Origin: an uncultured Candidatus Saccharibacteria bacterium
GTDB taxonomy: Bacteria > Patescibacteriota > Minisyncoccia > Minisyncoccales > CAZKCU01
Assembly: GCA_964431915.1 (NCBI GenBank)
Contig: CAYSLI010000001.1
Span: 191,824 to 255,823 of the forward strand
DNA: 64,000 nt
Reading direction: 5' to 3'
Made by a program: the position numbers and the translations under genes
Shown here: piece by piece, positions 13,533 to 52,760 of the stretch
Layout: each line of letters opens with the position of its first letter
Position numbering within the stretch: the first letter of the stretch is position 1
Notes under the pieces: generated by a model
The model's database searches: none
Seen by the model: the letters and a program-made list of their open reading frames with translations, nothing else
Told to the model about the DNA's origin: nothing

Positions 13533-13668
13533 ATGAGAAAAATTTTAATGGTAAGGATCTTGAACGTAGTAAAAGATCCTTTTGACCAAAATTTATCATG
13601 AAAAAGAAAATTTTAATGGCAAGGATCTTGAACATAGTAAAAGATCCTTTTGACCAAAATTTATCATG
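13533..13668 (+). repeat. Two tandem 68-bp units duplicating the response regulator's start region, each with a 9-bp-stem hairpin
   Basis: Unit: atgaaaaagaaaattttaatgg(t/c)aaggatcttgaac(g/a)tagtaaaagatccttttgaccaaaatttatc. The start codon plus first 6 codons (MKKKIL) of the downstream response regulator are present three times. The inverted repeat aaggatctt/aagatcctt occurs in each copy. Confidence 0.8.
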
Positions 13669-14034
13669 AAAAAGAAAATTTTGGTAATTGAAGATGAGAA
13701 AACTTTAAGATTCCTTATCGTTCAGACCTTAGTTCAAGAAGGTTTTGAGGTTGAAGAGGCAATTGACGGAGAAGAAGGAATTCAAAAACTAAAAAAGAAT
13801 AAACCGGATTTAATTTTATTAGATTTGCTTTTGCCGAGCATCAACGGCTTTGAGGTCTTATCAAAAATAAAAAGAGATTCTAATTTAGAATCAATTCCAG
13901 TAATTATTCTTTCTAACCTTGGACAAGAAGAGGAAATTAAAAAAGGGTTGAATTTAGGGGCAATTGATTATTTAATTAAGGCTCATTTCACCCTTGATCA
14001 GGTTGTTTCCAGAATAAAAAAGGTTTTAAAGTAA
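13666..14034 (+). CDS. Response regulator receiver domain protein (CheY-like, single domain)
   Basis: Acidic pocket and DLILLDLLLP phospho-acceptor motif. 122 aa with no output domain. Confidence 0.8.
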   Translation: MKKKILVIEDEKTLRFLIVQTLVQEGFEVEEAIDGEEGIQKLKKNKPDLILLDLLLPSINGFEVLSKIKRDSNLESIPVIILSNLGQEEEIKKGLNLGAIDYLIKAHFTLDQVVSRIKKVLK

Positions 14035-19192: not shown

Positions 19193-20940
<1,748 letters not shown>

Positions 20941-21407: not shown

Positions 21408-24400
21408 ATGTCAATAGAGAATAAAAATGAAAATTTAATAAGCATTGAAGAATTTATTGCTAGAGCAAGAAGACTTGGAGTTGATTTTGGAAAAGGTGAC
21501 CCTAAAAATCGTCTGCGCTATTACGTCAAAATCGGTCTTTTGCCACATCTTCAAAGAAAGTCTTTTAACGGTCTGCCTCCAAACGGTGCTTACTTGGAAA
21601 GCACTCTTGGAATTTTGCTTGAGATTGACAAAAAATTAAAAGCCGGAAAGAGTATTCAGGAAATAAAAAGAGAGGAAGAAGAAAAAGTTTTTGAGAAAAA
21701 GCTGCCAAAAATTACTACTCCCCATACATATATGTATGGTCCGGGAATTGAATCTTTTCAGTTAAAAACTGAAGTTCCGCAAACAGAAAAAGAAAAAGGA
21801 GAAGAATTGGAAATCAAAGAAACTCCTGAAATTATTATTGAAAGAAAACCCTTTGTAAAAATACCGGCTATTTTAAAAATTGTGCTTTTGGTTTTAATTT
21901 GCGTTTCAACCCTTTTTTTTACAGATGAAAAAATTAATTTTATAGATCCAATTCCTTATTTTTTAGCTAATATAAGCGAACATATAAGTGGATTTAGAAA
22001 ATTAACTCAATTGCCGGCTTCTTCTCTTCGCGAAGAAGTTTTTAGCCTTCCGGCTGTTGAACCCTATCTTACTATCAATGCTGAAACAGCTATTAACGCT
22101 CTTTTAAAAGCAAAAGAAAAAATAACTGCCCCAAGTTTCGCTTTAATCAGAAATGAATTTGAAGGAAGAATTACTGCTGCCGGACTTACTGTTGAGAGAG
22201 AATATAATTTTCCAGATTTATCCGGAACTGTTTGTTTAGCTACCGGAAATTGTTTTGGTTTAGAAGGAGAAGTAATTACCCTTGGCGGCACCCCCAACAG
22301 ATTAGCTAAATTTATTTCTGCTCAGGAAGTTAGAGATTCTTCAATCAGCGATTTATACCTTGGGGGGGTAGCAATTGCTATTGATTCAGTCGGTAATGTT
22401 GGAATTGGAATTGAAGATCCTGCTCATCCTTTCCATGTTGAGGGAAGGATTCAGGCAACAGGTGATATTTGTACTGATTTGAAAGGCGGCAGGTGTTTGA
22501 GCACTTTGCGGGTTGGTGGTGGTGGAGGAGGAGGTATTGGCGGTTCAGGTTCTGCCAATTATCTTTCAATCTGGACCAGCTCCGGCAGTTTAGGAAATTC
22601 TATTCTCTATCAGACCGGCGGGAATATTGGCATCGGGACGACGGGGCCGGCGGCGACGGCGTTGTTGGACCTCACCTCGACGGAGAAAGGATTTCTTGCC
22701 CCGCGAATGACAGAAGCCCAAAGAGATGCTATCTCTTCACCAGCAACAGGACTTTTCATTTACAACACAACCACCAACCAGTACGACATGTACAACGGAA
22801 CATCATGGGGCGCGGTTGGCGGCGGCGTGCCCACTGACGCCCAGTACGTTACCTTAGCAGTCAATGCCACTTTAACCGATGAAAGAGTCTTAACCGCCGG
22901 AACCAATATTTCAGTAACTGATGGAGGAGCTGGAGGTAATGTAACAATAGCTACCATAAATAATCCTGTTTTCTCAACCTCAGTTACCTCTCCAATTATT
23001 TATGGTTCTTCGGCTGCCTCGGGTAATCTTACTTTAAGAACAACTTCTGATGCTACCAAGGGTTACGTCATTTTAGCTGACGATGGCGGCAACGTCGGCA
23101 TCGGGACGGCAAGCCCTACTTCCCTTTTTTCTGTTGGTGCCTCTTCCCAATTCCAGATAGATACTTCTGGAGATATTATCAAACTAAAAAACCTTACCTA
23201 TTCTTGGCCTTCATCTCATACTGCTGATGGTTTCTTAAAAGATGACGGTTCAGGAACCTTAACCTGGACAACCATTGGCGGAGCAGGAGGAGTAACTGGC
23301 AGCGGAACTGCTGGATACATTCCCAAATGGAGCACCAGCACTACTTTGACTGATTCTGTTTTATATGAAACTGGAGGCAATATTGGCATTGCCACAGCCA
23401 GCCCGGAAGTGGAATTAGATATTGCTGGCCAAGCCAGAATTACCAGCACTACCACTCCCCAGTTATCAGTAAGATACGATGCTGCCAAGTATCTCAATAC
23501 CCTCCTTTCTTCAGGTGAAACCACTTTTCAGACTGGTTTTTCCTCTTTCTTGTTTAAGAGTCTACAGCAAGCAGTTTATTTTTGGACAAGAAAATCTGAC
23601 TGGGATGCCCCTGATGTAGGAACTTATTCTGCTCCTGCCTTTGCCGACTTAGACGATGACGGAGATTATGATTTATTGATTGGAAGATATTATGGACAAA
23701 GCTATGGCTATGAGAACACAGGAACTGTTTCCAGCCCAGCCTGGACAAGAGAATCTGACTGGGATGCTCCTGATATAGGCGATCTTATGCCTGCTCCTGC
23801 CCTTGCCGACTTAGACGATGACGGAGATTATGATTTATTGATTGGAAGCTTTGATGGAATAAGTTATGCCTATGAGAACACCGGAACTGTTTCCAGCCCA
23901 ACCTGGACAAGAAAATCTGACTGGGATGTCTCTGATGTGGGGACTGGGAGTGGCCCTGGCTTTGCCGATTTAGACAATGACGGAGATTATGATTTATTGA
24001 TTAGAGAAATTAGCGGAGTAAGTTTGGGTTATGAGAACACAGGAACTGTTTCCAGCCCAGCCTGGACAAGAGAATCTGACTGGGATGCTCCTAGTGTGGG
24101 ACTTTCTTATTCTTCACCTGCCCTTGCCGACTTAGACGATGACGGAGATTATGATTTATTGACTGGAGCCAGTGGTGATAGAGTTTATGCCTATGAGAAC
24201 ACAGGAACTGTTTCCAGCCCAGCCTGGACAAGAAAATCTGACTGGGATGCTCCTGATGTGGGATCTGCTAGACCTGCCCTTGCCGACTTAGACGATGACG
24301 GAGATGATGATTTATTGATTGGAGCCACTGGTGGAGTAAGTTATGCCTATGAGAACACCGGAAGTGGTGGTCAACTGACTACCCGTTTAGTTATAGACCA

Positions 24401-27400
24401 AGACGGTAAAGTTGGCGTCGCTACGACAGCACCCTATGAAAGATTAGAGGTGGCGGGAGGGACAAGAGTTGGTCAGGCACCGACAACCTATACTACCCTT
24501 TCAGCTGATATGACTGACAGTCAGACTACTGCCACTGTTGCCTCTACCTCTGGTTATCCTTCGGTTGGAACCTTGCTAATTGATTCAGAAGCTATGACTT
24601 ATACAAATAAGAGCGACACCGTGTTTACTGGTTTAACCAGAGGGGCTTTGGGAACAACGGCCGCTACCCATAGTTCAGGAGTAACAGTCAAAAACTATCT
24701 CTTTACTGCCTTAGCTACCGCCACCACTCCTAACATGGTAATAACTGGAGAGGGTAATCTGGGCATCGGGACGACAAATCCTGGGGCCAAGCTCGATCTT
24801 AGCTATACCCAGACAGCAGTTGGAGGAGACGAAGGAATAAGAAGTTTGGTGACCCAAGGAACCAATGCCTTAACAGGCACTCTAAGGGCTGGCTACTTTG
24901 TTGCCACCAACGGAGAACTTGACAGCTCCTCTGGCACTATCAGAGGAATAGAAGTTAAAGCCAGAGCTGCAGGTTCTGACCTGACAGGAGGTTCAGTCGG
25001 CACTCTGGAAGCAATCTCAGCTTCAGCTGATGCTAAGGATGAAACTGTCATCACCTTAAGAGGAGCAGAACTTATCTTAGACGGTCAAACAGGAGCCAGT
25101 GTTACTACAGCTGTCGGCTTAAGGATTGCTAACAACTTCCAGGCAAATATAGCCACTACTTCTTATGGTCTTCAAATCTACCGTGATTCCTTTGACTATA
25201 CAGCTGATATTCAATTATCTTCTGGTGGCACTATTGGTGGCTCCAGCGGAACTTTATCTATCACCAGTGGGGGCAATGTGGGCATCGGGACGGCAACTCC
25301 TTCATCTTTCAAATTACAGATAGCAGGAAGTTTAGGTCCTGATGCTGATAACCAATATGATTTAGGTTCAGCAACAGCCAGATGGAGAGACCTCTATTTG
25401 GGTCCTTCTTCTCTGAATATCTATAATACTACCGGAGCTGACGCCGAATACTTCACTATTGGTTATGATGCTACTCCAACAATTAGCTTTTCTTCCTTAG
25501 CTAATGGTTCAGGTACAGCCAGAAACTTCAACTTTACTGGTGGCAACGTCGGCATCGGCGATACTTCGCCAGCTTCTTTATTAACTGTTGGCTCAGGTGA
25601 TTTATTCCAGGTAGATAGTTCAGGAGACATTGTTAAGATAAAAAACCTTACTTATTCTTGGCCTTCCTCTCACACTACTGACGGTTTCTTAAAAGATGAC
25701 GGTTCAGGGACCTTAACCTGGACAACCATTGCTGGAGCCGGAGGAGTAACTGGAAGCGGAAATGCTGGTTATCTGCCTAAATGGAACACCAGCACTGACT
25801 TGACTGATTCTGTTTTATATGAAACCGGCGGCAACGTCGGTGTTGCCACAGCCAGCCCGGGGGTGGAATTAGATATTGCTGGTCAAGTCAGAGTTACCAG
25901 CACTACTACTCCCCAGTTGTCAGTTAGATACGATGCTAATAAATATCTCGATACTCTTCTTTCTTCAAGTAACGAAATTATTTTTCAGACTAGTTTTGCC
26001 TCCTTCTTGTTTAAAAGCATGCAGTTAGTAGGTTCTTTCTGGACAGCAAAATCCAGCTGGGATGCCCCTGATGTGAGCGCGATTGGCATTTCTGCCCCGG
26101 CCTTTGCTGACTTAGACGATGATGGAGATTATGATTTATTGATTGGAAGATACGAGGGAACAAGCTATAGTTATGAAAACACCGGGAGTGTTTCCAGCCC
26201 AACCTGGACAAGAAAATCCGGCTGGGATGCCCTTGATGATGTGGGAACTTATTCTACCCCAGCTCTTGCTGACTTAGACAATGATGGAGATTATGATTTA
26301 TTGGTTGGAGAGAGCAATGGAATAAGCTATGCCTATGAAAACACCGGAGATGTTTCCAGCCCGACCTGGACAAGAAAATCCGACTGGGATGCTCCTGATA
26401 TGGGAGGTAGTAGTTGTACTTCCCCGGCCTTTGCTGACTTAGACAATGACGGAGATTATGATTTATTGATTGGAGTATATGGTGGGACAAGCCTTGGCTA
26501 TGAAAACACCGGAGATGTTTCCAGCCCAACCTGGGCAGCAAAATCCGACTGGGATGCTCCTTATGTGGGAGCTCGGGCTTCCCCAGCTTTTGCTGACTTA
26601 GACAATGACGGAGATTATGATTTATTGATTGGAGTATGGCCTACTGGAATAAGCTATGGCTATGAAAACATCGGAACTATTTCCAGCCCAACCTGGACAA
26701 GAAAATCCGACTGGGATGCTCCTGATGTGGGAACTTATTCTTCCCCAACTCTTGCTGACTTAGACAATGATGGAGATTATGATTTATTGGTTGGAGAACA
26801 AAGTGGAATAAGCTATGCCTATGAAAACACCTCCGAAGGTCAACTGACTACCCGTTTAGTTATAGACCAAAACGGTAAAGTCGGTGTCGCTACGACAACA
26901 CCCTCTGAAAGATTAGAGGTGGCTGGAGGAACAAGAATTGGTCAGGCACCAACAACTTATACTACCCTTTCAGCTGATATGACTGACAGTCAGACTACTG
27001 CCGCTGTTGCCTCTACCTCTGGTTATCCTTCAGTTGGAACCTTGCTAATTGATTCAGAGGCTATGACTTATACAAACAAAAGTGACACCGTATTTACTGG
27101 TTTAACCAGAGGAGCTTTGGGGACAACGGCCGCTACCCATAGTTCAGGAGCAACAGTTAAAAACTATCTCTTTACTGCTTTAGCTACCAGCACTACTCCC
27201 AATATGGTAATAACTGGAGAGGGTAATCTGGGCATCGGGACAACGAATCCGGGAGCCAAGCTTGATATTTCATATACTCAAACAGCCGCTGGTGGTGATG
27301 AGGGAATCAGGAGTTTGGTAACCCAGGGAACTAATGCCTTAACAGGAACCTTAAGAGGAGGATACTTTGTAGCTACTGATGCAGATTTAACAGGTTCAAC

Positions 27401-29270
27401 AGGAACAGTCAGAGGAATTGAAGCTAAAGCCAGGGCTTCTGATGGAGGCAGTTATTCTCATGGTGTTTTGGAAGCTATATCTGCTTCAGCTGATGCCAAG
27501 GACCAGACAGTAAGTTATCTTAGGGGGGCAGAGATTATGATTGATGGGAAGTCAGGGTTTGATGTAATCAATGAGGCAGTAGGATTAAGAATAGCTAACA
27601 ATCTCCAGGCAGCAGTAACCACAGGTTCTCTTTATGGTCTCCAGATTTACAGGGACAGCTTTGATTACGATGCTGATATTCAGTTATCAAGTGGAGGCTT
27701 GATAGGAGGCAGTGGTGGTCATTTGAATATTGATTCTTCTGGAAATGTCGGCATCGGGACGGCGAGTCCAAATCACTTATTACATCTTTCCGAAACTACT
27801 ACAGCAGCAGGCGGGGATACTCTTTTACGGGTTACTGGCTTGCATACCGATGACACTGCTATGACCGGTACCCTACGGGGAGCATACATTGATATTAGTA
27901 ATGGCATTTTAGCATCAACAGGAACAATCAGGGGTATGGAATTAAAAGCACGCACCGAAGCTCCGGGAGATGAAGGGAATGATGTAGCCGTTCTTGAGGG
28001 TTTGTCAATCAGCGCTGATTCTAAAGACCACAGTGTTACAACAATGCGTGCTGCAGAGTTTATTCTTGATGGTTCTATAGGCGGGACAATCACAGAAGCT
28101 GTGGGCTTAAGAATAGCCAACAATCTTCAAGCCAATAAAGCCACCACTTCTTATGGACTTCAAATCTACCGGGACTCCTTTGATTACACAGCAGATATTC
28201 AATTATCTTCTGGTGGCACAATCGGAGGTTCCGGCGGAGACATGGTTATAGACAGCAGCGGCAGCGTCGGCATCGGGACAATGGGGCCGGATAGAAGACT
28301 CGATGTTTTAGATGCCTCAGCTGCCCAATTAAGGCTTACTTATATTGATAATTCAGTTTATACTGATTTCACTTTAGACACTAACGGAAATTTAACAATT
28401 AACCCGGCTAAAAATATTTATCTTAAATATAGCGCCAATACCGGGTCTAACCTCTGGGTTTGTGAAGGGACGGCTTGTCCTGGCGCAGATACAAGTATGG
28501 GTAGTGGTGGTGGAAATTTAGTGGTTGAAGGAGGAATTTATGGCGGCACCCGCTGTCCTTCGGATATGGTTTATATTCCTGGCGACAAGCCTTTCTGTAT
28601 TGATAAATACGAGGCATACAATTCAAATTCAGGCTCGGTTTGTAATAATACTGATTGTCCCTGTGGTGACGGGACCCAGGCCCAAGTTGATGCTAATACT
28701 ACTATCGCTATTGCCGGTTCTGCTTCAGGGCAAACTCCTTTAGTGTCTATTACTTGGTGTTCGGCTAAAAAGGCCTGTGAAAATACCGGAAAGCACCTGT
28801 GCACAAACCAAGAATGGTCCCAGGCCTGTAATTATAAAGGTGGACAATTTAATATTACTGCCGAAGAAACAGCAGAAACTATGTCCTGCAATACAGCGGA
28901 TGAATGCAGTGGGGCTGCCTGTAATACTGGAGCCAGTTCAGGTTGTGTTACCCAAGAAGGAGCTTATGATATGATTGGTAATGTTTGGGAATGGGTGGAT
29001 AAAGTGGTTACGGCTGACCCGACTAATGGTTTGGGCAGTAACTATGTTACCGGATATGATTTCGCTACGGGTTTGCCCATATCAGTAGGAGCTTCTAGTA
29101 ATGCTTATGGCAATGATTATTACTATGCTTATGATGGCGCAGGAGCGGCTCGCGCCGCTATCCGCGGCGGCGGTTGGACCTATGGCGCGAACGATGGTTG
29201 CTTCTACCTGACTCTGAGCGATGCTCCGTCCAACGCGGACACGCGCCTTGGTTTCCGTTGCTGTCGCTGA
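21408..29270 (+). CDS. Giant (2620 aa) surface protein and DGR variable protein. It has a MerR-like HTH N-terminus, one TM helix, a duplicated block of FG-GAP-type beta-propeller repeats, recurring GNVGIGT motifs, and a C-terminal FGE-sulfatase/C-type-lectin-fold domain that carries the VR.
   Basis: N-terminus IEEFIARARRLGVDFGKG..RLRYYVKIGLLP matches the MerR HTH signature (RYYxxxGLL). TM helix IPAILKIVLLVLICVSTLFF. Twelve repeats of SDWDAPDVG...ADLD(D/N)DGDYDLL(I/V)G...Y(A/G)YENTG, the FG-GAP Ca-binding pattern. C-terminus MVYIPG...GNVWEWV...RGGGW...GFRCCR shows FGE-sulfatase hallmarks. Confidence 0.85.
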   Translation: MSIENKNENLISIEEFIARARRLGVDFGKGDPKNRLRYYVKIGLLPHLQRKSFNGLPPNGAYLESTLGILLEIDKKLKAGKSIQEIKREEEEKVFEKKLPKITTPHTYMYGPGIESFQLKTEVPQTEKEKGEELEIKETPEIIIERKPFVKIPAILKIVLLVLICVSTLFFTDEKINFIDPIPYFLANISEHISGFRKLTQLPASSLREEVFSLPAVEPYLTINAETAINALLKAKEKITAPSFALIRNEFEGRITAAGLTVEREYNFPDLSGTVCLATGNCFGLEGEVITLGGTPNRLAKFISAQEVRDSSISDLYLGGVAIAIDSVGNVGIGIEDPAHPFHVEGRIQATGDICTDLKGGRCLSTLRVGGGGGGGIGGSGSANYLSIWTSSGSLGNSILYQTGGNIGIGTTGPAATALLDLTSTEKGFLAPRMTEAQRDAISSPATGLFIYNTTTNQYDMYNGTSWGAVGGGVPTDAQYVTLAVNATLTDERVLTAGTNISVTDGGAGGNVTIATINNPVFSTSVTSPIIYGSSAASGNLTLRTTSDATKGYVILADDGGNVGIGTASPTSLFSVGASSQFQIDTSGDIIKLKNLTYSWPSSHTADGFLKDDGSGTLTWTTIGGAGGVTGSGTAGYIPKWSTSTTLTDSVLYETGGNIGIATASPEVELDIAGQARITSTTTPQLSVRYDAAKYLNTLLSSGETTFQTGFSSFLFKSLQQAVYFWTRKSDWDAPDVGTYSAPAFADLDDDGDYDLLIGRYYGQSYGYENTGTVSSPAWTRESDWDAPDIGDLMPAPALADLDDDGDYDLLIGSFDGISYAYENTGTVSSPTWTRKSDWDVSDVGTGSGPGFADLDNDGDYDLLIREISGVSLGYENTGTVSSPAWTRESDWDAPSVGLSYSSPALADLDDDGDYDLLTGASGDRVYAYENTGTVSSPAWTRKSDWDAPDVGSARPALADLDDDGDDDLLIGATGGVSYAYENTGSGGQLTTRLVIDQDGKVGVATTAPYERLEVAGGTRVGQAPTTYTTLSADMTDSQTTATVASTSGYPSVGTLLIDSEAMTYTNKSDTVFTGLTRGALGTTAATHSSGVTVKNYLFTALATATTPNMVITGEGNLGIGTTNPGAKLDLSYTQTAVGGDEGIRSLVTQGTNALTGTLRAGYFVATNGELDSSSGTIRGIEVKARAAGSDLTGGSVGTLEAISASADAKDETVITLRGAELILDGQTGASVTTAVGLRIANNFQANIATTSYGLQIYRDSFDYTADIQLSSGGTIGGSSGTLSITSGGNVGIGTATPSSFKLQIAGSLGPDADNQYDLGSATARWRDLYLGPSSLNIYNTTGADAEYFTIGYDATPTISFSSLANGSGTARNFNFTGGNVGIGDTSPASLLTVGSGDLFQVDSSGDIVKIKNLTYSWPSSHTTDGFLKDDGSGTLTWTTIAGAGGVTGSGNAGYLPKWNTSTDLTDSVLYETGGNVGVATASPGVELDIAGQVRVTSTTTPQLSVRYDANKYLDTLLSSSNEIIFQTSFASFLFKSMQLVGSFWTAKSSWDAPDVSAIGISAPAFADLDDDGDYDLLIGRYEGTSYSYENTGSVSSPTWTRKSGWDALDDVGTYSTPALADLDNDGDYDLLVGESNGISYAYENTGDVSSPTWTRKSDWDAPDMGGSSCTSPAFADLDNDGDYDLLIGVYGGTSLGYENTGDVSSPTWAAKSDWDAPYVGARASPAFADLDNDGDYDLLIGVWPTGISYGYENIGTISSPTWTRKSDWDAPDVGTYSSPTLADLDNDGDYDLLVGEQSGISYAYENTSEGQLTTRLVIDQNGKVGVATTTPSERLEVAGGTRIGQAPTTYTTLSADMTDSQTTAAVASTSGYPSVGTLLIDSEAMTYTNKSDTVFTGLTRGALGTTAATHSSGATVKNYLFTALATSTTPNMVITGEGNLGIGTTNPGAKLDISYTQTAAGGDEGIRSLVTQGTNALTGTLRGGYFVATDADLTGSTGTVRGIEAKARASDGGSYSHGVLEAISASADAKDQTVSYLRGAEIMIDGKSGFDVINEAVGLRIANNLQAAVTTGSLYGLQIYRDSFDYDADIQLSSGGLIGGSGGHLNIDSSGNVGIGTASPNHLLHLSETTTAAGGDTLLRVTGLHTDDTAMTGTLRGAYIDISNGILASTGTIRGMELKARTEAPGDEGNDVAVLEGLSISADSKDHSVTTMRAAEFILDGSIGGTITEAVGLRIANNLQANKATTSYGLQIYRDSFDYTADIQLSSGGTIGGSGGDMVIDSSGSVGIGTMGPDRRLDVLDASAAQLRLTYIDNSVYTDFTLDTNGNLTINPAKNIYLKYSANTGSNLWVCEGTACPGADTSMGSGGGNLVVEGGIYGGTRCPSDMVYIPGDKPFCIDKYEAYNSNSGSVCNNTDCPCGDGTQAQVDANTTIAIAGSASGQTPLVSITWCSAKKACENTGKHLCTNQEWSQACNYKGGQFNITAEETAETMSCNTADECSGAACNTGASSGCVTQEGAYDMIGNVWEWVDKVVTADPTNGLGSNYVTGYDFATGLPISVGASSNAYGNDYYYAYDGAGAARAAIRGGGWTYGANDGCFYLTLSDAPSNADTRLGFRCCR
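23088..28260 (+). repeat. Intragenic tandem duplication: two ~2.45/2.2-kb near-identical blocks (about 23088-25541 and 25542-27740) plus a partial third copy (27741-28260)
   Basis: Anchor ggcaacgtcggcatcgg recurs at 23088 and 25542, with gaaatgtcggcatcggg at 27741 and cagcgtcggcatcggg at 28258. Protein blocks are about 85-90% identical (TYSWPSSHT(A/T)DGFLKDDGSGTLTWTTI..., six FG-GAP blades, ...LQIYRDSFDY(T/D)ADIQLSSGG). Confidence 0.8.
29146..29268 (+). repeat. DGR variable region (VR), the last ~41 codons of the giant gene
   Basis: 123-bp match to the TR at 29705-29827 (offset 559). All 17 mismatches fall at TR adenines. The 3'-terminal 21 nt (ttggtttccgttgctgtcgct) are A-free and identical to the TR. 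Confidence 0.85.
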
Positions 29271-29328
29271 AGGGGTTTAAATTTAATCTAAAATCTAATT
29301 TCTGAAAATCTAAAACTAAAAACATCAA

Positions 29329-29667
29329 ATGTTATATGATTTACACCTATTTCAAAAAGTATATGATTTCCTTTTATGGATAAAACCCACTGTTCAGAGA
29401 TTTACTAAAGTTCATAAATATAGCTTAGGTATTCAATTAGAAAATGAAGTAATAGAACTTTTAAAACAAATTGTTAGAGCTAATTTTCAAAAAGGCAACA
29501 AAAGAGAACTTATCGAAGAATGTTTTGTTCATTACGAAATTATTAAAGTTTTAATAAGATTAGGTAGAGAGTTCAATCTTTTAAATAAGAGTCAATACGA
29601 ATTTGTGGCAAAAGAATTAGTTGAAATAGGAAAATTATTGGGTGGTTGGTACAAAAGATTTTCTTAA
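29329..29667 (+). CDS. avd: DGR accessory variability determinant Avd (four-helix-bundle protein)
   Basis: 112 aa. Aligns with Bordetella phage Avd and the 23S-rRNA-IVS family, e.g. ...KELVEIGKLLGGWYKR versus the Avd C-terminal EVGRILGSWIAR pattern. Located between VR and TR as in canonical DGRs. Confidence 0.8.
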   Translation: MLYDLHLFQKVYDFLLWIKPTVQRFTKVHKYSLGIQLENEVIELLKQIVRANFQKGNKRELIEECFVHYEIIKVLIRLGREFNLLNKSQYEFVAKELVEIGKLLGGWYKRFS

Positions 29668-29704
29668 TTTGCTATCTACTTTTAGTAGGTAGAGGGATAA
29701 AATC

Positions 29705-29827
29705 AAAATCGCGCCGCTATCCGCGGCGGCAATTGGAACAATGGCGCGAACGATGGTTGCTTCAACCTGAATCTGAACAATGCTCCGTCCAACACGAACA
29801 CGAACATTGGTTTCCGTTGCTGTCGCT
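29705..29827 (+). repeat. DGR template repeat (TR), non-coding
   Basis: Translation in the VR frame gives IRGGNWNNGANDGCFNLNLNNAPSNTNTNIGFRCCR, with AAC codons at every position that differs in the VR (VR: IRGGGWTYGANDGCFYLTLSDAPSNADTRLGFRCCR). Confidence 0.85.
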
Positions 29828-29955
29828 TCAGTGATTCATTAAATAATTGGCCAGAATTCTTATCTTAATTGAGATGAGAAGCGTGCCGTTAAACCCCAGA
29901 TTTTATTCCTTCTTAAGTAAGTTAAAGGTTGAAAAGGAAAATATTAAGCCTGTAT

Positions 29956-29996
29956 CCCGAGGAAGTAGGAGTAGGAAAGGAAACTTCTTCCTCGGG
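29956..29996 (+). promoter_or_regulatory. 10-bp-stem hairpin in the TR-RT spacer (candidate DGR RNA structural/priming element)
   Basis: cccgaggaag-N21-cttcctcggg. A second imperfect hairpin, cttatctt-aatt-gagatgag, lies at 29863-29882 just 3' of the TR. Confidence 0.4.
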
Positions 29997-30031
29997 TTAA
30001 TAGGCTTTACTCCGTTAGATAAAAAAGATAA

Positions 30032-31111
<1,080 letters not shown>

Positions 31112-31128
31112 ATTATTTAATTTAAACT

Positions 31129-32244
31129 ATGTTTCAAAAAATTATTAATTTTTTTAAATATCATAATGCTTTTGCCATTGGCATCAGTTTAGTTTTAGTT
31201 TTAACTTTTTCTGCGATGGCGTCGGAGGATGTTAGAAATGCCGTGATTGGCGAAAAGATTGTTACAGAGCAAGGCGTAGATAACTCCCAACTCCTACCTG
31301 TTGATTTAGATAATTTTGATGTAGATTTAAAAATTGACAATGTTTTAGAAGATGAAGAAAATTATTACATTGATTATAGTTTTAATACAATAGCGGTCAG
31401 GGATAATGTCTGGCAGCCAGTTGTTAAAGCAGAAAAATTTACCGTGAATAAAAATGCCTTGGGAAATAGGGACTTGGGAATTTATTTAGCCGAGGAATTA
31501 GGAGAAGTAGCTCAAGCTGAAATTACTTATTTGAAAAAAGCTCAAAAAACTGAAAGAGAAAGGGGACTAACTCAGATTGTTAGAACTACGGATTATACCG
31601 GACTAATTGGTTTAACCCTTGATTTAAAAAACAAAGTTCTACCTGGCTATGAACCGGTTATTAAGCCACCAGCAATTGAGATTGCTCAGATTACTCAACC
31701 TTTAATTATTGAAGAGCCTCCTATTATTGAAAAACCGGTTGTTGAAGAACTTGTTTGCCAGCCATCAGAAGAAATCTGCGATGGTGCGGATAACAATTGT
31801 GATGGTCAAATAGACGAAGGCGGCGTTTGCCCCAAAGAAGAGCCTTTGGCTCCCTCCGGGGCAGGTGAAGCAGCACCGGTAGCTGAACCTATTTGCGATG
31901 TAGACCATTTAGATTTGTGTACTACTCAAGAGTTATGTGAAGGAGTTAGTTTATATTGGTACAATGAAATTTGCAACTTAGAGCCAGAAACTCCTGCCTG
32001 CCAGCCAACAGGGGAGGTTTGTGACGGCATAGACAATGACTGTGATGAATTAATTGATGAAGATTTAGGCCAAGCTACTTGCGGAGTGGGGGCTTGTGCA
32101 GTAACCATAGATAATTGTATAGGTGGTCAATCCCAAACTTGTACTCCCGGAACTCCCACTGAGGAAATCTGCGACCAGATAGACAATAATTGTGATGGCC
32201 AAATTGATGAAGGAAGTGTCTGTGTAGAACCTCCAACCGAATAA
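31129..32244 (+). CDS. Secreted Cys-rich protein with four CDGxDNxCDGxIDE(G) repeats (MopE-like putative metal-binding motif)
   Basis: Signal peptide. Repeats CDGADNNCDGQIDEGGVC, CDGIDNDCDELIDED, CDQIDNNCDGQIDEGSVC and others. Confidence 0.6.
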   Translation: MFQKIINFFKYHNAFAIGISLVLVLTFSAMASEDVRNAVIGEKIVTEQGVDNSQLLPVDLDNFDVDLKIDNVLEDEENYYIDYSFNTIAVRDNVWQPVVKAEKFTVNKNALGNRDLGIYLAEELGEVAQAEITYLKKAQKTERERGLTQIVRTTDYTGLIGLTLDLKNKVLPGYEPVIKPPAIEIAQITQPLIIEEPPIIEKPVVEELVCQPSEEICDGADNNCDGQIDEGGVCPKEEPLAPSGAGEAAPVAEPICDVDHLDLCTTQELCEGVSLYWYNEICNLEPETPACQPTGEVCDGIDNDCDELIDEDLGQATCGVGACAVTIDNCIGGQSQTCTPGTPTEEICDQIDNNCDGQIDEGSVCVEPPTE

Positions 32245-32304
32245 CCGAAAATAGGTGCAAAAATAAGTGTCAACTCTGTTTTTCTTTAACAACTTTTATA
32301 GAAT

Positions 32305-32620
32305 ATGGAAATTCGTATTTTCGATAAATCTTTAGAGAAATTTATTAAGAATCTGCAAAAGCCAACAATTGCTAAACTTTTGCGAACAACTAATTTACTT
32401 GAGAAATTTGGTCAGAAATTAGGGCCGGCCCCATACGAAGAAAATTTCAACTCGCCCTTTTGAGCTTAGAATTTCTGGTAAACAGGAAGTCAGAATTTTT
32501 TACAGTTTTTATAAATCGCGGATTTTTCTTATACACGGCTTTGTTAAAAAATCACAAAAAATCCCTCAGAGAGAAGTTAGGACGGCTTTCCAAAAATTAA
32601 GACTACTTGACAAGGTATAA
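32305..32620 (+). pseudogene. higB: HigB/Gp49-family (RelE/ParE superfamily) toxin, frameshifted
   Basis: MEIRIFDKSLEKFIKNLQKPTIAKLLRTTNLLEKFGQKLGPAPY... reaches a stop at 32461. The +1 frame continues ...KISTRPFELRISGKQEVRIFYSFYKSRIFLIHGFVKKSQKIPQREVRTAFQKLRLL (classic HigB C-terminus). A frameshift lies near 32440. Confidence 0.6.
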
Positions 32621-32642
32621 CATATACGTTATATAGAAGTTA

Positions 32643-32933
32643 GTGCGTATGAAAAAGAAAACTTACAAACAACTAAAAAAGGAGTTATTAAAAGATAAAA
32701 AAACTAAACAGCTCTATGAGAAATTGGGGCCAGAGTTCGCGGTGATTGAAATGATTATTAAAAAAAGGATTGAGAAGGGGTTGAGTCAAAAAGAACTTGC
32801 CAGAAAAATCGGCACCAAACAATCGGCTGTTTCCCGGCTGGAATCGGGAACTTACAATCCCAGCCTTTCTTTTCTGCAGAAAGTAAGTGAAGCCTTAGAT
32901 GTGAAATTAAAAATTTCTTTGGCAGCGAGATAA
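32643..32933 (+). CDS. higA: HigA-like XRE-family HTH antitoxin
   Basis: HTH_3 motif LSQKELARKIGTKQSAVSRLESG. Immediately downstream of the higB remnant. Confidence 0.7.
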   Translation: MRMKKKTYKQLKKELLKDKKTKQLYEKLGPEFAVIEMIIKKRIEKGLSQKELARKIGTKQSAVSRLESGTYNPSLSFLQKVSEALDVKLKISLAAR

Positions 32934-32993
32934 AAAAGTGAGGTCTATTTTATTTGATTGACATTACTTCCAAAAAGATTAAAATTAAAGTGT

Positions 32994-33212
32994 ATGACTA
33001 ATTCTTCAAAAACAATAACCTTATCGAAAGCCCTAATTCAAAGGAAAAAGGGAATAGCGATTTTACCTTTGGAAGAATACGAAAGAATCAAAGAAGATTT
33101 AGAAATGCTTCAATCAAAGAGATTGGCAAAAGAAATTGAGAAGGCAAGAAAAGAAGTAAAATCTGGGAACGTAATAAGATTAGAAGAATTGGAAAGGAAA
33201 TTAAATTTATAG
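32994..33212 (+). CDS. Phd/YefM- or RelB-type antitoxin
   Basis: ...IAILPLEEYERIKEDLEMLQ...KEVKSGNVIRLEEL pattern. Start likely at the internal Met (MTNSSKT). Confidence 0.5.
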   Translation: MTNSSKTITLSKALIQRKKGIAILPLEEYERIKEDLEMLQSKRLAKEIEKARKEVKSGNVIRLEELERKLNL

Positions 33213-33222
33213 ATTCTCTGTT

Positions 33223-33474
33223 ATGAGATTAATTTTTACGAGGATAGCTTTTCATCAATTTCAAAAATTAAACCGCCCTGCTTAGAAAAGAATTGATGAA
33301 AAGCTACGTTTTTATTTATCTCAGCAAAATCCTCTGAAATTTGCCGAACCTTTAAGAGACCCTAAATTCGGAGATTGGAGGTTTCGAATCGGAGATTATA
33401 GAGTCCTTTTTGATGTTGAAGATAATAAAATTGTTGTTTTAAAAGTAGAGCATCGAAAAAACATTTATAAATAA
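33223..33474 (+). pseudogene. relE: RelE/ParE-family toxin with an in-frame TAG at codon 21
   Basis: MRLIFTRIAFHQFQKLNRPA*KRIDEKLRFYLSQQNPLKFAEPLRDPKFGDWRFRIGDYRVLFDVEDNKIVVLKVEHRKNIYK, with TAG at 33283-33285. The rest of the frame is intact and shows the typical RelE motif (YRLRVGDYRIIY-like). Confidence 0.6.
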
Positions 33475-33486
33475 TTCGCAAAAAAT

Positions 33487-35931
33487 ATGAAACTTCCAAT
33501 AAAAATTAATTCAAATAATAATCTTCCTAAAAAAACTTCTCTGAGACAAAAGAGGTCTTCTGTTAAAACCGAGCCCATTCGACTGGCTCAGGGCAAGGAA
33601 ACTCCAGATACTAAAATCCAGATTCTCAAGAAGGTTAAGCTCTGGGATAAAATTGCCAAGGTTAGTATCTATCTTTTAGTATTTCTAACGCCTCTATTTT
33701 TTCTTCCTTGGACTCTTAACGTTCTTGATTTTAACAAGCAGGCCTTGATGGGGATTTTAGTAATTTTAGCCCTTTTTGCCTGGATTTTGAAAATTTTGGT
33801 TTCTGGCAAATTTGAATTTAATCTAAGCTGGCTTTCTCTTCCGATAGTAATAATGCTGGTGGTTTATGGGATTTCAACCCTTTTTTCTTTTTGGCCTTAT
33901 GGAAGTTTTTGGGGCTGGCCGCTTAATGTTAGCGCCGGATTTTTGACCCTACTTTATTTCGTATTTTTGTATTTTTTAATCGCCAATGTTTTTACAAAAA
34001 AGCAAGAGATTTTTCGGCTTTTTCTTACTTTAGTTAGTTCAGGATTTTTAGCAGCAGTCTTTGGCGGGCTTCAACTCTTTAGTAAATTTATCTTACCATG
34101 GGATTTTACCAGAATTATCTCTTTTAACACCATCGGAACAGTAAATTCGCTGGCCATATTTTTAGCTATTTTGCTTCCTTTGACAATTATCTTACAGCTT
34201 ATTGCGAAAAAGTGGATGCGGATGATGTTAGCGATTTTTGCCTTGGTAATGTTAGTTAGTTTAGTTTTGGTTAATTTTTGGGCGGCCTGGTTGGTTTTAA
34301 TCGCGGGGGCAGCAATACTTTTTATTTTTCAGATGCTTAACATTAAGGCTATTCATGGTGGCGGGATTCAGCTCTCAATAGCTCTTTTAATTATTGCTTT
34401 GTTTTTCGTTATTTTTAGGATTTCTTTGCCCGGCCTTCCCCAAACTCCATTTGAAGTTTCCCCAAGCCAGAGAGCAGAAATCAGTATTGCCGCAAACACT
34501 CTATCTAAATCTCCTATTTTGGGTACGGGACCGGGAAGTTTTGTCTATAATTTCTCAAAATTTAAATCAAAAGACCTGAACCAGACAATTTTTTGGAATG
34601 TCAGGTTTGTATCAGGTGCTTCAGAAATTCTTGATAAATTAATCACCACCGGAATTCTGGGAGTTCTTTCTTTAATTTCTATTTTTGGAATGTTTTTCTG
34701 GCTGGGTTTTAGATATTTAAGAGAAAAAGCCAGAGATATAATAGATGGAGCACCTTTCCTGTTTGGGCTGGGAATTTTTTCGTCTTTTGGCGGAATAGTC
34801 TTGAGCCAATTTCTCTATCCTGCTAATTTTTCTTTAGCTTTAGTTTTTTGGATATTGCTGGCAGGATTTACAGCGCTTGATAAAAGAAAAATTAAATCTT
34901 GGGAGATTAGCCCTGGTTCTTCTCTGGTGGTAGGATTATCTTTTTGCTTAGTTTTGGTTTTAATTTTTGGCATTGGACTTCTTTTCCTTGGAACCCAAAA
35001 ATATATGTCCGAAATAAAGTATTTTCAGGGATTGAGAGATTGGCAAGCGGGCCAAACAGAGCAGGCGATTTCACGTCTAAAAGCAGCAATTAATTTAAAT
35101 CCAAGCTTAGACGTCTATTGGCGAGATATCTCCCAGCTTTATTTAGTAAGATTAGACGAAGTTTTGCAGAGGGCTGACTTAAAGGAGATGACTTCCGAGG
35201 ACCAAATTCTTATGACTGGAGCTATAGATTCGGCAAAAGAGGCAACCAGATTAAATGAAGTTAATGTCGCTAATTGGAATGTCAGAGGATTCATTTATCG
35301 GAATATGATGGGAATAGTTGAAGGCGCCGGGGACTGGGCCCTGAATTCCTATCAGAAGGCAGGGGAATTGGAGCCTACAAATCCTTATATATTTACTGAA
35401 ATTGGCAGAATTTATATTTCAAAATTTGATTTAGGTGAAGGAGAGAGGCAAGAAAATTTAAGATTAGCTTTAGAAAGTTTTGAGCGGTCCCTTCAGCTTA
35501 AAGAGGATTATGCTCCAGCCCATTTCCAGATTGCGATGATTTATGTTAGAGAGGGAAAAACTAAGGAGGCAATAGATAAAATTGAGACAATCAAAGAGGT
35601 AGCACCGCTTGATGCAGGTCTCGCCTTTCAATTAGGTGTTATTTATTACAATGATAATCAGTTTGACAAGGCGAAAGGAGAATTTCAAAGAGCGATAAGA
35701 TTAGATGGAAATTATTCCAATGCCCGTTATTTTCTGGGATTGATTTATGACCGGGAGGAAAATAAAAAGGGAGCAATTTTGCAATTTGAAAGGATTGAAA
35801 AATTAAACCCCGAAAATTCAGAAGTTAAAAAGATTTTGGCTAATTTAAGAGCTGGAAAGCCGGCTTTAGAAGGGATTGAGCCAAGCCAGCCCCCAATTGA
35901 AGAAGCGCCCCCAGAAAGATTAGAGAAGTAA
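33487..35931 (+). CDS. Polytopic membrane protein with O-antigen-ligase/Wzy_C-like domain and C-terminal TPR repeats
   Basis: About 12 TM helices. ILGTGPGSF motif of the O-antigen ligase family. The C-terminal ~300 aa are TPR-like (AxxxY/F periodic repeats). Confidence 0.55.
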   Translation: MKLPIKINSNNNLPKKTSLRQKRSSVKTEPIRLAQGKETPDTKIQILKKVKLWDKIAKVSIYLLVFLTPLFFLPWTLNVLDFNKQALMGILVILALFAWILKILVSGKFEFNLSWLSLPIVIMLVVYGISTLFSFWPYGSFWGWPLNVSAGFLTLLYFVFLYFLIANVFTKKQEIFRLFLTLVSSGFLAAVFGGLQLFSKFILPWDFTRIISFNTIGTVNSLAIFLAILLPLTIILQLIAKKWMRMMLAIFALVMLVSLVLVNFWAAWLVLIAGAAILFIFQMLNIKAIHGGGIQLSIALLIIALFFVIFRISLPGLPQTPFEVSPSQRAEISIAANTLSKSPILGTGPGSFVYNFSKFKSKDLNQTIFWNVRFVSGASEILDKLITTGILGVLSLISIFGMFFWLGFRYLREKARDIIDGAPFLFGLGIFSSFGGIVLSQFLYPANFSLALVFWILLAGFTALDKRKIKSWEISPGSSLVVGLSFCLVLVLIFGIGLLFLGTQKYMSEIKYFQGLRDWQAGQTEQAISRLKAAINLNPSLDVYWRDISQLYLVRLDEVLQRADLKEMTSEDQILMTGAIDSAKEATRLNEVNVANWNVRGFIYRNMMGIVEGAGDWALNSYQKAGELEPTNPYIFTEIGRIYISKFDLGEGERQENLRLALESFERSLQLKEDYAPAHFQIAMIYVREGKTKEAIDKIETIKEVAPLDAGLAFQLGVIYYNDNQFDKAKGEFQRAIRLDGNYSNARYFLGLIYDREENKKGAILQFERIEKLNPENSEVKKILANLRAGKPALEGIEPSQPPIEEAPPERLEK

Positions 35932-35953
35932 TTTTTATCCTGAATTTTTACCC

Positions 35954-35976
35954 TATTGATTTACGAAATCAATAGA
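35954..35976 (+). terminator. Perfect 10-bp inverted repeat (ctattgattt-acg-aaatcaatag) downstream of the TPR membrane gene. Candidate terminator or operator.
   Basis: Seen directly in the sequence. There is no strong T-tract after it. Confidence 0.35.
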
Positions 35977-36077
35977 TTGAGCGGAGCTTGACTTTTTTGG
36001 ACAAAGGGAATAAAATAAATTGATTATTAATTTCATTACTTGATTTCTCTTAGTTAAAAAATTAAATAAAAGACATG

Positions 36078-52673: not shown

Positions 52674-52675
52674 AG

Positions 52676-52760
52676 TGCCGAAGGTGGGATTCGAACCCAC
52701 AAGGGCTTTCGCCCAACGGCTCCTGGGGCCGCCGCGTTTACCAAATTTCGCCACTTCGGC
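52676..52760 (-). tRNA. tRNA-Leu (anticodon CAG), type II with long variable arm. No encoded CCA.
   Basis: Minus-strand sequence GCCGAAG-TG-GCGAAATTTGGTAAACGC-G-GCGGC-CCCAGGA-GCCGT-TGGGCGAAAGCCCTT-GTGGG-TTCGAAT-CCCAC-CTTCGGC-A. It has a 7-bp acceptor stem, a T-loop TTCGAAT, and a variable-arm hairpin GGGC-GAAA-GCCC. Position 33 is C, which is atypical. Confidence 0.7.

Follow-up and report, generated by a model that had tools for sequence, protein, structure and literature searches.

Does an uncultured bacterium of the Patescibacteria carry, among the core genes of its own chromosome, a retroelement that still rewrites part of a giant and probably surface-exposed protein, and if so, what points the rewriting at its target and what might turn it off? 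The question is raised by a stretch of 64,000 nucleotides (hereafter the window) from contig CAYSLI010000001.1 of assembly GCA_964431915.1, assigned to an uncultured Candidatus Saccharibacteria bacterium. The window holds a cassette with the components of a diversity-generating retroelement (DGR), laid out as a target gene that ends in a variable repeat (VR), the accessory gene avd, a template repeat (TR), a structured spacer RNA and a reverse transcriptase (RT) gene. An earlier reading of the letters, which we call the original prediction, had described an apparently intact DGR in the Bordetella-phage-like order target(VR)-avd-TR-RT. Both the order and the intactness are borne out, and every component that it named was positive in our analysis. 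We conclude, with a probability of roughly 93%, that the cassette is a chromosomal DGR of the lineage found in Patescibacteria (CPR, for Candidate Phyla Radiation) and that it has recently been active in a natural population; its identification as a DGR is about as firm as sequence can make it. Features lie on the plus strand unless stated otherwise; L-numbers denote related loci and P-numbers database proteins.

An adenine-directed repeat pair

The VR (29150-29268) is formed by the last 119 nt of the target open reading frame (ORF), its last 40 codons before the TGA stop. At the predicted offset of 559 nt lies a second copy with 119 nt of contiguous homology, the non-coding TR (29709-29827), which has the same sequence in all three assemblies of the locus compared below. 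The two copies differ at 13 positions, and at all 13 the TR has A while the VR has G, C or T. The hypergeometric probability that 13 mismatches in 119 nt would all fall on the 27 TR adenines is 2.6e-10. Four further A-templated mismatches at the edge, CGGC at 29146-29149 against AAAA at 29705-29708, would bring the tally to the 17 of 17 given by the original prediction. This edge is probably non-homologous flank, because it is unchanged in a second, independently diversified VR allele (L164). The adenine-only pattern therefore stands with or without the edge, whereas the count is better given as 13. The A-run at 29705-29708 may also be copied with the TR.

When every TR adenine is written as N, the resulting pattern occurs in two copies in the window, the VR and the TR, where shuffles lead to an expectation of none; the same degenerate search found no second VR in the window. 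The TR adenines fall at codon positions 1 (15 adenines) and 2 (12), never at position 3, and for most of the substituted codons the TR has AAC or AAT, much as the original prediction had it. Adenines at codon positions 1 and 2, mostly in AAC or AAT codons, are the usual design of DGR templates. The final 21 nt of the VR and TR are identical and free of adenine, again as described.

Recent diversification in a natural population

Further assemblies of the locus, found by exact-protein look-up, are L164 (identical to L166; a 45-kb contig of JGI 3300031355), L165 (SRR8556479) and L167 (SRR8556428). Positions 21411-36000 of the window are 99.85% identical to L164. Over these 14.6 kb, the two differ only by 20 substitutions in the VR and a 2-nt indel in an AG tract of the RT gene. 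The substitutions span 29160-29245, and 19 of the 20 are at sites where the TR has adenine. The TR itself is the same in the window and L164, and L167 carries the L164 allele of the VR. The original prediction had held that a working DGR should show population-level variation at adenine-templated VR sites, and this is what the assemblies contain. Differing by adenine-templated VR changes and the 2-nt AG indel, the window and L164 amount to a natural "before and after", which shows diversification in the wild of a giant envelope protein of an episymbiont-type bacterium. By this comparison of sequences, the DGR is recently active in its natural population.

A decayed relic, with old VR/TR differences and no further diversification, would suit the frameshifted RT genes of some related assemblies (L164, L040, L104), as well as a relative lineage (L170, L171) whose VR-avd-TR segment lacks an adjacent spacer or RT. 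Yet all cassette ORFs are intact in the window. Further, 20 VR sites differ with no other substitution in the surrounding 14.6 kb and with the TR unchanged, which requires very recent, targeted and adenine-directed change. Nor is a paralogous origin of the two VR alleles supported, given a single VR in the window and collinear flanks. We consider a relic very unlikely.

The lineage represented by L170 and L171 (Avd protein P0243) has about 80% DNA identity to window positions 29160-29852. Its homology to VR-avd-TR ends exactly at the start of the spacer RNA, and neither spacer nor RT follows. These may be RT-less cassettes, or cassettes served in trans.

A reverse transcriptase and an Avd protein of the DGR kind

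The RT gene (30032-31111; 359 aa; Pfam RVT_1) encodes the IGxxxSQ motif and the YMDD active site named in the original prediction, which a motif search places at nt 30641-30661 (IGNLTSQ) and nt 30737-30748 (YMDD). The closest protein of known structure by sequence (phmmer against the PDB) is 8ub7, the DGR RT of Bordetella phage BPP-1 (E = 2e-55); the best group II intron RT follows at 2.5e-24. An AlphaFold model of the RT has a pLDDT of 81.6, with low confidence at residues 141-151. Searching with this model in Foldseek, the first five matches are the RT structures of DGR ribonucleoprotein (RNP) complexes, 8ub7 to 8ubf, with template modelling (TM) scores of 0.64-0.86 and 32-34% identity; for 8ub7 the values are 0.79-0.86 and 34%. 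Group II intron RTs, DRT9, DRT2 and retron RTs all rank behind these DGR structures. Homologues of the RT reach 75% identity and are mostly encoded in metagenome-assembled genomes of Patescibacteria and Saccharibacteria; the overwhelming share is from Patescibacteria genomes out of aquatic and groundwater metagenomes.

An RT of some other class, be it of a group II intron, a retron or a defence system (DRT/UG), beside a repeat that is a coincidental partial gene duplication, might be suspected from the databases. Generic RT models cross-match, among them RT_UG17, Drt3a and others in PADLOC and the NCBIfam group II RT/maturase model (149 bits), and several public records label homologues "retron-type" or "reverse transcriptase/maturase". 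PADLOC was not used for classification, because it returns many RT models without cut-offs. Where cut-offs exist, the scores fall far below them: 149.4 bits against 300 for the group II RT/maturase model TIGR04416, 51.7 against 235 for NF038233, 81.7 against 200 for Drt3a and 54.9 against 390 for Drt2. An Rfam search found no group II intron RNA in the window. Since the closest matches in both sequence and fold are DGR RTs, and the gene is accompanied by avd, adenine-only mismatches and a DGR-type spacer RNA, we regard the chance of another RT class as negligible. The original prediction's separation of this RT from group II intron and retron types is upheld by the PDB sequence matches, the fold and the equivalog scores.

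Between the repeats, avd (accessory variability determinant; 29329-29667) encodes 112 aa. The profile searches that the original prediction had proposed place this protein in the Avd family: it scores 62.6 bits against Pfam bAvd PF22296 (cut-off 40) and, passing narrowly, 81.0 bits against NCBIfam NF033474 DivGenRetAVD, "diversity-generating retroelement protein Avd" (cut-off 80). The alignment to Bordetella phage Avd that had also been claimed is weak (BLASTP E = 7e-4 over 30 residues), and a sequence search of the PDB returned DARPin and ankyrin noise only. The assignment is thus carried by the profile models, because the pairwise match to BPP-1 Avd is marginal.

A giant target protein

The target gene (21408-29270, from the ORF list) encodes 2620 aa. 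Hydropathy indicates a charged, N-terminal cytoplasmic segment of about 145 aa and a single predicted transmembrane helix (about aa 150-172; nt 21855-21923), an arrangement that would leave most of the protein, including its VR tip, probably extracellular. The protein contains FG-GAP repeat arrays (Pfam E = 2.5e-29, above the cut-off), and two arrays of 162-nt FG-GAP-type repeats are visible in the DNA at 23583-24363 and 26090-26831. The one predicted helix together with these repeats suggests that the target is probably on the cell surface. At its C-terminus, an FGE-sulfatase/C-type-lectin-fold domain (PF03781; aa 2414-2620, nt 28647-29267; 46.2 bits against a cut-off of 23.3, E = 6e-12) contains the VR, in agreement with the original prediction; by sequence, this domain has only weak FGE and EgtB matches in the PDB.

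Sequence of about 2.46 kb is tandemly duplicated within the target gene; for instance, 23150-23449 is 87% identical to 25604-25903, and 24369-24668 is 94% identical to 26838-27137. The gene has a G+C content of 44.7%; the window as a whole has 36.7%, and avd and the RT gene have 26-33%. Immediately upstream, on the minus strand, is a 256-aa ORF (20001-20771) with an IS1595/ISXO2-like DDE transposase domain (E = 6e-8), which may mark a mobile or recently rearranged region.

A structured spacer RNA

The stretch from the TR to the RT gene holds a structured spacer (Sp) RNA (29849-30005), recognised by covariation and related to the Rfam RT-14 motif. An alignment of 12 related loci supports four helices with 28 pairs, 21 of which show compensatory changes. 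In this consensus, 88% of cells are paired, compared with 36-54% in controls whose partners were slid by 1-3 columns, and none of 500 shuffles reached the observed pairing values. A covariance model built from the alignment (R1) matches 31 of the 81 first sources and 27 more metagenome and other loci, giving 58 fetched loci; the window copy scores 140 bits. The element sits just 3' of the TR in every TR-mapped locus, including L033 and L035, in which the TR is downstream of the RT gene. By a crude scan, the same layout with adenine-biased VR/TR pairs is present in 22 of 80 related genome loci, where adenine-biased means that at least 80% of mismatches are at adenines of one copy; in most of the 22 this is exclusively so.

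One further helix reaches across the TR. A strand just 5' of it, GGGATAAAATC (29694-29704), pairs with GATTTTATTCC (29899-29909) in the spacer. This long-range duplex forms 10-12 of 12 pairs in all 26 of the 26 related loci, and in 23 of the 26 it occupies a constant position just 5' of the TR, starting 148-179 nt before the spacer. Compensatory variants include GGGTTAGAATC:GATTCTAGTCC and GGGATTAAATC:GATTTAATTCC.

The RNA can be read against the cryo-electron microscopy structure of the BPP-1 RNP (bioRxiv 10.1101/2023.10.23.563531). There, an Avd-binding stem-loop just 3' of the TR is followed by a template-primer duplex of TR with Sp and by a "cPRT Stop" duplex that Sp forms with sequence 5' of the TR; the 3' part comprises a short stem-loop with adenosines, a single-stranded "thumb ring" and an RT-binding stem-loop. 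The window offers a counterpart to nearly each element in turn. Helix 1, a 10-bp stem with a tetraloop (29857-29866/29871-29880), resembles the Avd-binding stem-loop; the segment TTAAACCCCA (29889-29898) would correspond to the primer, and the long-range pairing to the Stop duplex. Helix 2 (29910-29914/29935-29939), which is followed by an A-rich run, has its analogue in the short stem-loop and adenosines, and the terminal stem-loop (29948-30005) resembles the RT-binding one.

This last element contains the hairpin that had been proposed as the priming structure, CCCGAGGAAG/CTTCCTCGGG at 29956-29965/29987-29996 with a 21-nt loop. The hairpin itself is present and conserved. Its role is a different matter: by analogy with BPP-1, it is probably an RT-binding stem-loop rather than the primer, which likely lies upstream at 29889-29898. 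The likeness to BPP-1 is one of architecture and not of sequence, because R1 finds no match in the Bordetella phage spacer even with filters off. A scan for promoters and terminators around the cassette yielded nothing above the shuffle expectation.

Flanks, homing direction and a proposed mechanism

The direction of homing would depend on how the 3' flanks of the two copies differ. The original prediction had suggested the A-free 21-mer as a boundary like the initiation of mutagenic homing (IMH) element, but this shared sequence corresponds instead to the GC-rich element shared by both repeats of BPP-1. By the same analogy, the counterpart of IMH and IMH* would be the diverged sequence 3' of the 21-mer: an IMH-like flank of the VR (29269-29281) and an IMH*-like flank of the TR (29828-29843), the latter a degenerate copy with a 3-nt indel. 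Immediately 3' of the VR, GGGGTTTAA (29272-29280) can pair without mismatch over 9 nt with TTAAACCCC (29889-29897) in the primer segment. A BPP-1-like phage shows the equivalent arrangement, with Sp48-56 (AGGTGGTCA) the exact complement of the 9-nt TGACCACCT in its VR IMH.

The relatives have other sequences here but the same asymmetry: complementarity of the primer to the VR flank extends over 6-11 nt, and the TR flank has one or two mismatches. A scripted comparison of flanks across loci gave 10 with the VR favoured, 7 equal and 2 with the TR favoured. This tally understates the manual reading, because the script stops early where adenine mismatches cluster (L024, L001, L101). The idea that direction follows from complementarity between primer and VR flank is not new, since it was proposed for BPP-1 by Naorem et al. 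(PMC5703328). What is new is comparative sequence support for it from a distant lineage.

Taken together with the BPP-1 structure, these features suggest the following mechanism. A transcript of the avd 3' end, the TR and the spacer would fold around the RT-Avd complex, with the helix-1 stem-loop gripping Avd and the 3' stem-loop that contains the hairpin gripping the RT. The segment at about 29889-29898 would then fold onto the imperfect TR flank and prime synthesis of complementary DNA (cDNA) in cis, and the duplex 29694-29704:29899-29909 would stop that synthesis at the TR 5' end. The RT would misincorporate opposite template adenines, and the RNA-linked cDNA would replace the VR. The direction of homing would be set by the primer, because it pairs perfectly with the VR flank (9 nt) and poorly with the TR flank. 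As an outcome, variation is expected at about 27 adenine-templated nucleotides on the ligand-binding face of the C-type-lectin-fold domain, which forms the tip of the giant and probably extracytoplasmic FG-GAP-repeat protein. For each RNA element required by the mechanism, there is a covarying counterpart here.

Several points weigh against this account. The predicted primer duplex between TR flank and spacer is weak, with about 5 of 9 pairs, and in a search that was not exhaustive, no hairpin or cruciform of the sort that enhances BPP-1 homing was seen immediately 3' of the VR. For cis-priming, the priming nucleotide, adenine misincorporation and homing, the account borrows from BPP-1 by analogy. 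Hydropathy is what places the target at the surface. One of the 20 allele differences, at 29161, is at a non-adenine site: the window and the TR have T, and L164 and L167 have G. This site adjoins a mutated adenine site, and the change may be an occasional neighbouring misincorporation. Finally, the window spacer scores 28.9 bits (E = 0.042) against Rfam RF02921 RT-14, below the gathering score of 48.1. It aligns full-length to that model, and three related loci pass the gathering score at the positions found by R1 (L041 with 58.8, L024 with 53.9 and L006 with 49.1 bits). The window spacer RNA is a diverged relative of RT-14, not a called member.

A slippage-prone tract in the RT gene

Inside the RT ORF, and in frame, lies a perfect (AG)19 microsatellite (30428-30465; 100% matches), the sole dinucleotide tract in the window. 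Its translation, (Arg-Glu)6, falls in a loop just before the strand with the catalytic aspartate of motif A (3); in the RT model, the tract appears as a helix extension and then a low-confidence stretch. With (AG)19, as in the window, the 359-aa RT is intact. With (AG)18, as in L164, a TAA directly follows the tract and the RT is split into fragments of 144 aa and 123 aa. P0245, from a 62-kb contig, is 100% identical over the first 131 RT residues and then has the tail ...RERERERERER-VNSLGEFTA*. This is the reading that (AG)17 would give, an allele known from protein sequence only. The L165 contig begins inside the AG tract.

Relatives carry comparable tracts at the same place. Pure simple sequence repeats (SSRs) occupy this loop in 15 of the 99 relatives in which it could be delimited: (AG)n of 5 to 18 units, G11-12, A7-9 and one T7. 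The two closest genome or metagenome relatives, L104 (G11) and L040 (A9), are frameshifted at that tract. Strong SSRs number 12 in 7.5 kb of loop sequence against 28 in 546 kb elsewhere, an enrichment of about 31-fold (Poisson P ~2e-14, for loci that are not phylogenetically independent). Short homologues point the same way. With the first 131 RT residues as query, 178 short proteins were found, the best 120 being 123-227 aa long. Among these best 120 of 178, 35 are in one or the other wrong frame when they reach the downstream motif-A region, and all but one of them (34) shift immediately after an SSR-encoded tract; most others end at such a tract. The tract is kept in frame in 24 of 120 full-length homologues.

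At the level of sequence, the RT tract fits the definition of a phase-variable locus: its length is polymorphic against a background that is otherwise identical, its alleles put the ORF in or out of frame, and repeats have arisen convergently at this one site. Slippage in the AG tract may thus toggle diversification on and off. That the tract is a selected contingency switch, with slippage of (AG)n, Gn and An reversibly turning the RT off and on, seems to us an evenly balanced proposition; its adaptive role is something that we infer from sequence patterns, and this counts against it, as does the possibility that repeat-length differences between assemblies are library or assembly stutter. Alternatively, (AG)19 could be a neutral low-complexity expansion in a permissive surface loop, with the out-of-frame copies being dead genes or errors of assembly or sequencing. 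The loop indeed varies in length and sequence among RT homologues, and model confidence is low at residues 141-151. Short-read assemblies are prone to errors in homopolymers such as G11 and A9, and the (AG)17 allele enters the comparison only as protein. Against neutrality and error, three repeat lengths occur in one organism whose DNA is otherwise identical over 14.6 kb, the VR apart. Three repeat types, (AG)n, Gn and An, as well as one T7, arose at the same loop, which is also where the roughly 31-fold enrichment is found, and both wrong frames recur, in some cases within contigs 20-60 kb long. Selection for an Arg-Glu peptide is disfavoured, because the tracts are pure DNA repeats and not mixed codons. 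We hold the neutral explanation to be possible but somewhat doubtful.

For the cellular control of DGR activity, a subject on which little is known, a slippage-prone RT repeat whose in-frame and out-of-frame alleles occur both within one population and across a clade provides a testable mechanism. If the switch is real, a lineage could "lock in" a VR variant that serves it well and return to hypermutation later; this would be a second-order control of a targeted mutator, shared by members of a Patescibacteria DGR clade. A slippage-prone DGR RT appears to be unreported: in the full-text literature searched, we found no paper that links DGR RTs with repeat slippage, and the words "frameshift" and "homopolymer" are absent from the text of PMC8144416.

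Repeats also occur elsewhere in related DGRs. In L063, a distant Saccharibacteria DGR RT (41% identity), a (GA)10 tract (2534-2553) lies in a different RT loop, before GIPIGNLTSQ, and encodes RERERER in frame. In L108 (84-200; P0259), the RT loop has (GA)15 and, after it, an insert of about 110 nt that contains inverted repeats (...TTGCGAGGAGCGAG...), which resembles a miniature repeat element and across which the RT frame changes.

A sister RT subclade (44-48% identity) has a G9-G11 tract 10-45 nt before the first matched RT residues (L109, L112, L125, L131, L134, L141, L148, L149, L151, L153, the second RT of L011, and L154, where the tract is (GT)11). The tract follows a conserved short ATG leader, the frame offsets of the leader ATG are inconsistent, and several loci have no in-frame start codon between the last stop and the RT body. 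These 5' tracts may provide a further repeat-based control that is independent of the first, or may be programmed slippage sites, and the G9-G11 tracts may echo the switch proposed for the RT loop. Further, (CT)n/(TC)n tracts lie upstream of or inside presumed DGR targets in L035 (3275-3318; 22 units), L010 (1944-1957; 7 units) and L082 (545-556; 6 units), so that repeats may affect DGR targets as well as the RT.

Genomic setting

The neighbours of the cassette are core chromosomal genes, and the element is chromosomal for this reason, as the original prediction of a non-phage setting had proposed. The window encodes type IV pilus ATPases and a platform protein, ligA, ftsW/rodA, ATP synthase, rpoB and rpoC, together with ftsK, recA, a class I (Trp/Tyr-type) tRNA synthetase, RNase J, uvrA and groEL. 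The RecA protein shares 93-95% identity with proteins recorded under Candidatus Nealsonbacteria or Pacebacteria, and a database protein on contigs of up to 297 kb matches it at 100%. Judged by this RecA, the organism is in the Patescibacteria, which agrees with the CPR-like bacterium of the original prediction.

The protein encoded directly downstream of the RT gene (31129-32244; 371 aa) has three metal-binding repeats of the Cys-rich MopE type. A MopE-like Cys-rich repeat protein also directly follows the cassette in L170, and the gene may be a conserved neighbour of this DGR. Elsewhere, an MNT/HEPN pair (NTP_transf_2 and HepT-like toxin-antitoxin) lies beside the RT gene in L082 (2342-2972) and in the P0105 contig; in L082 the pair is between the spacer RNA and the RT gene, and no avd gene was called there.

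Two features apart from the cassette were also seen. A 68-nt unit is repeated 2.1 times (13539-13682; 97% identity) in the gap between a histidine-kinase ORF and the next ORF, and contains a hairpin-like palindrome (GGATCTT...AAGATCC). A tRNA-Leu(CAG) gene on the minus strand (52675-52760) overlaps the GTG that is annotated as start codon of the RNase J ORF (50991-52754), so that RNase J must in fact begin further downstream.

Comparison with known systems

The prototype is the BPP-1 DGR (mtd-avd-TR-brt), with which the window DGR shares its order, adenine-only mismatches, a C-type-lectin-fold target and Avd. The RT is 34% identical and, in its predicted model, of the same fold; the series of spacer RNA elements is the same, and in both the complementarity of the RNA primer is perfect for the VR flank (IMH) and imperfect for the TR flank. 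In contrast to the phage-borne BPP-1 element, the window DGR is chromosomal, and its target is a 2620-aa membrane-anchored FG-GAP-repeat protein rather than a tail fibre. The two spacers have no detectable sequence similarity, the Bordetella phage spacer being Rfam Phage_DGR (RF03022). No GC-rich hairpin is obvious 3' of the VR here, and the (AG)19 tract has no equivalent in the BPP-1 RT. That a lineage far from Bordetella phage shows the same RNA logic, with a stop duplex and a primer that favours the VR flank, supports a general solution to the question of what sets the direction of homing.

Weinberg et al. (2017; PMC5737381) described RT-14 and speculated on a DGR function for RT motifs other than RT-10. 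Beyond RT-14 (RF02921) as described, the motif here is linked with the TR and the VR flank, and with a long-range duplex on the 5' side of the TR.

Roux et al. (2021; PMC8144416) defined a cell-encoded, CPR-restricted "DGR clade 2", with C-terminal VR targets of the C-type-lectin type. The window DGR is alike in being cell-encoded, in its Patescibacteria RT homologues and in its C-terminal, C-type-lectin-type VR. It differs in its target: CPR DGR targets usually lack recognisable transmembrane or other domains (PMC8144416), whereas this one has a predicted transmembrane helix and FG-GAP repeats. By sequence comparison, the cassette would belong to the CPR DGR clade as an ordinary member, if an unusually clean one.

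The RT tract invites a different comparison. Contingency loci vary in phase by slipped-strand mispairing, as in surface and restriction-modification genes of Helicobacter, Neisseria and Haemophilus. As in those loci, an uninterrupted repeat within an ORF is polymorphic in length between otherwise identical genomes, changes that are not a multiple of three truncate the protein, and repeat types are convergent at one site. The difference lies in what would be switched: here it is an enzyme of targeted mutagenesis, and not a surface antigen or a methyltransferase.

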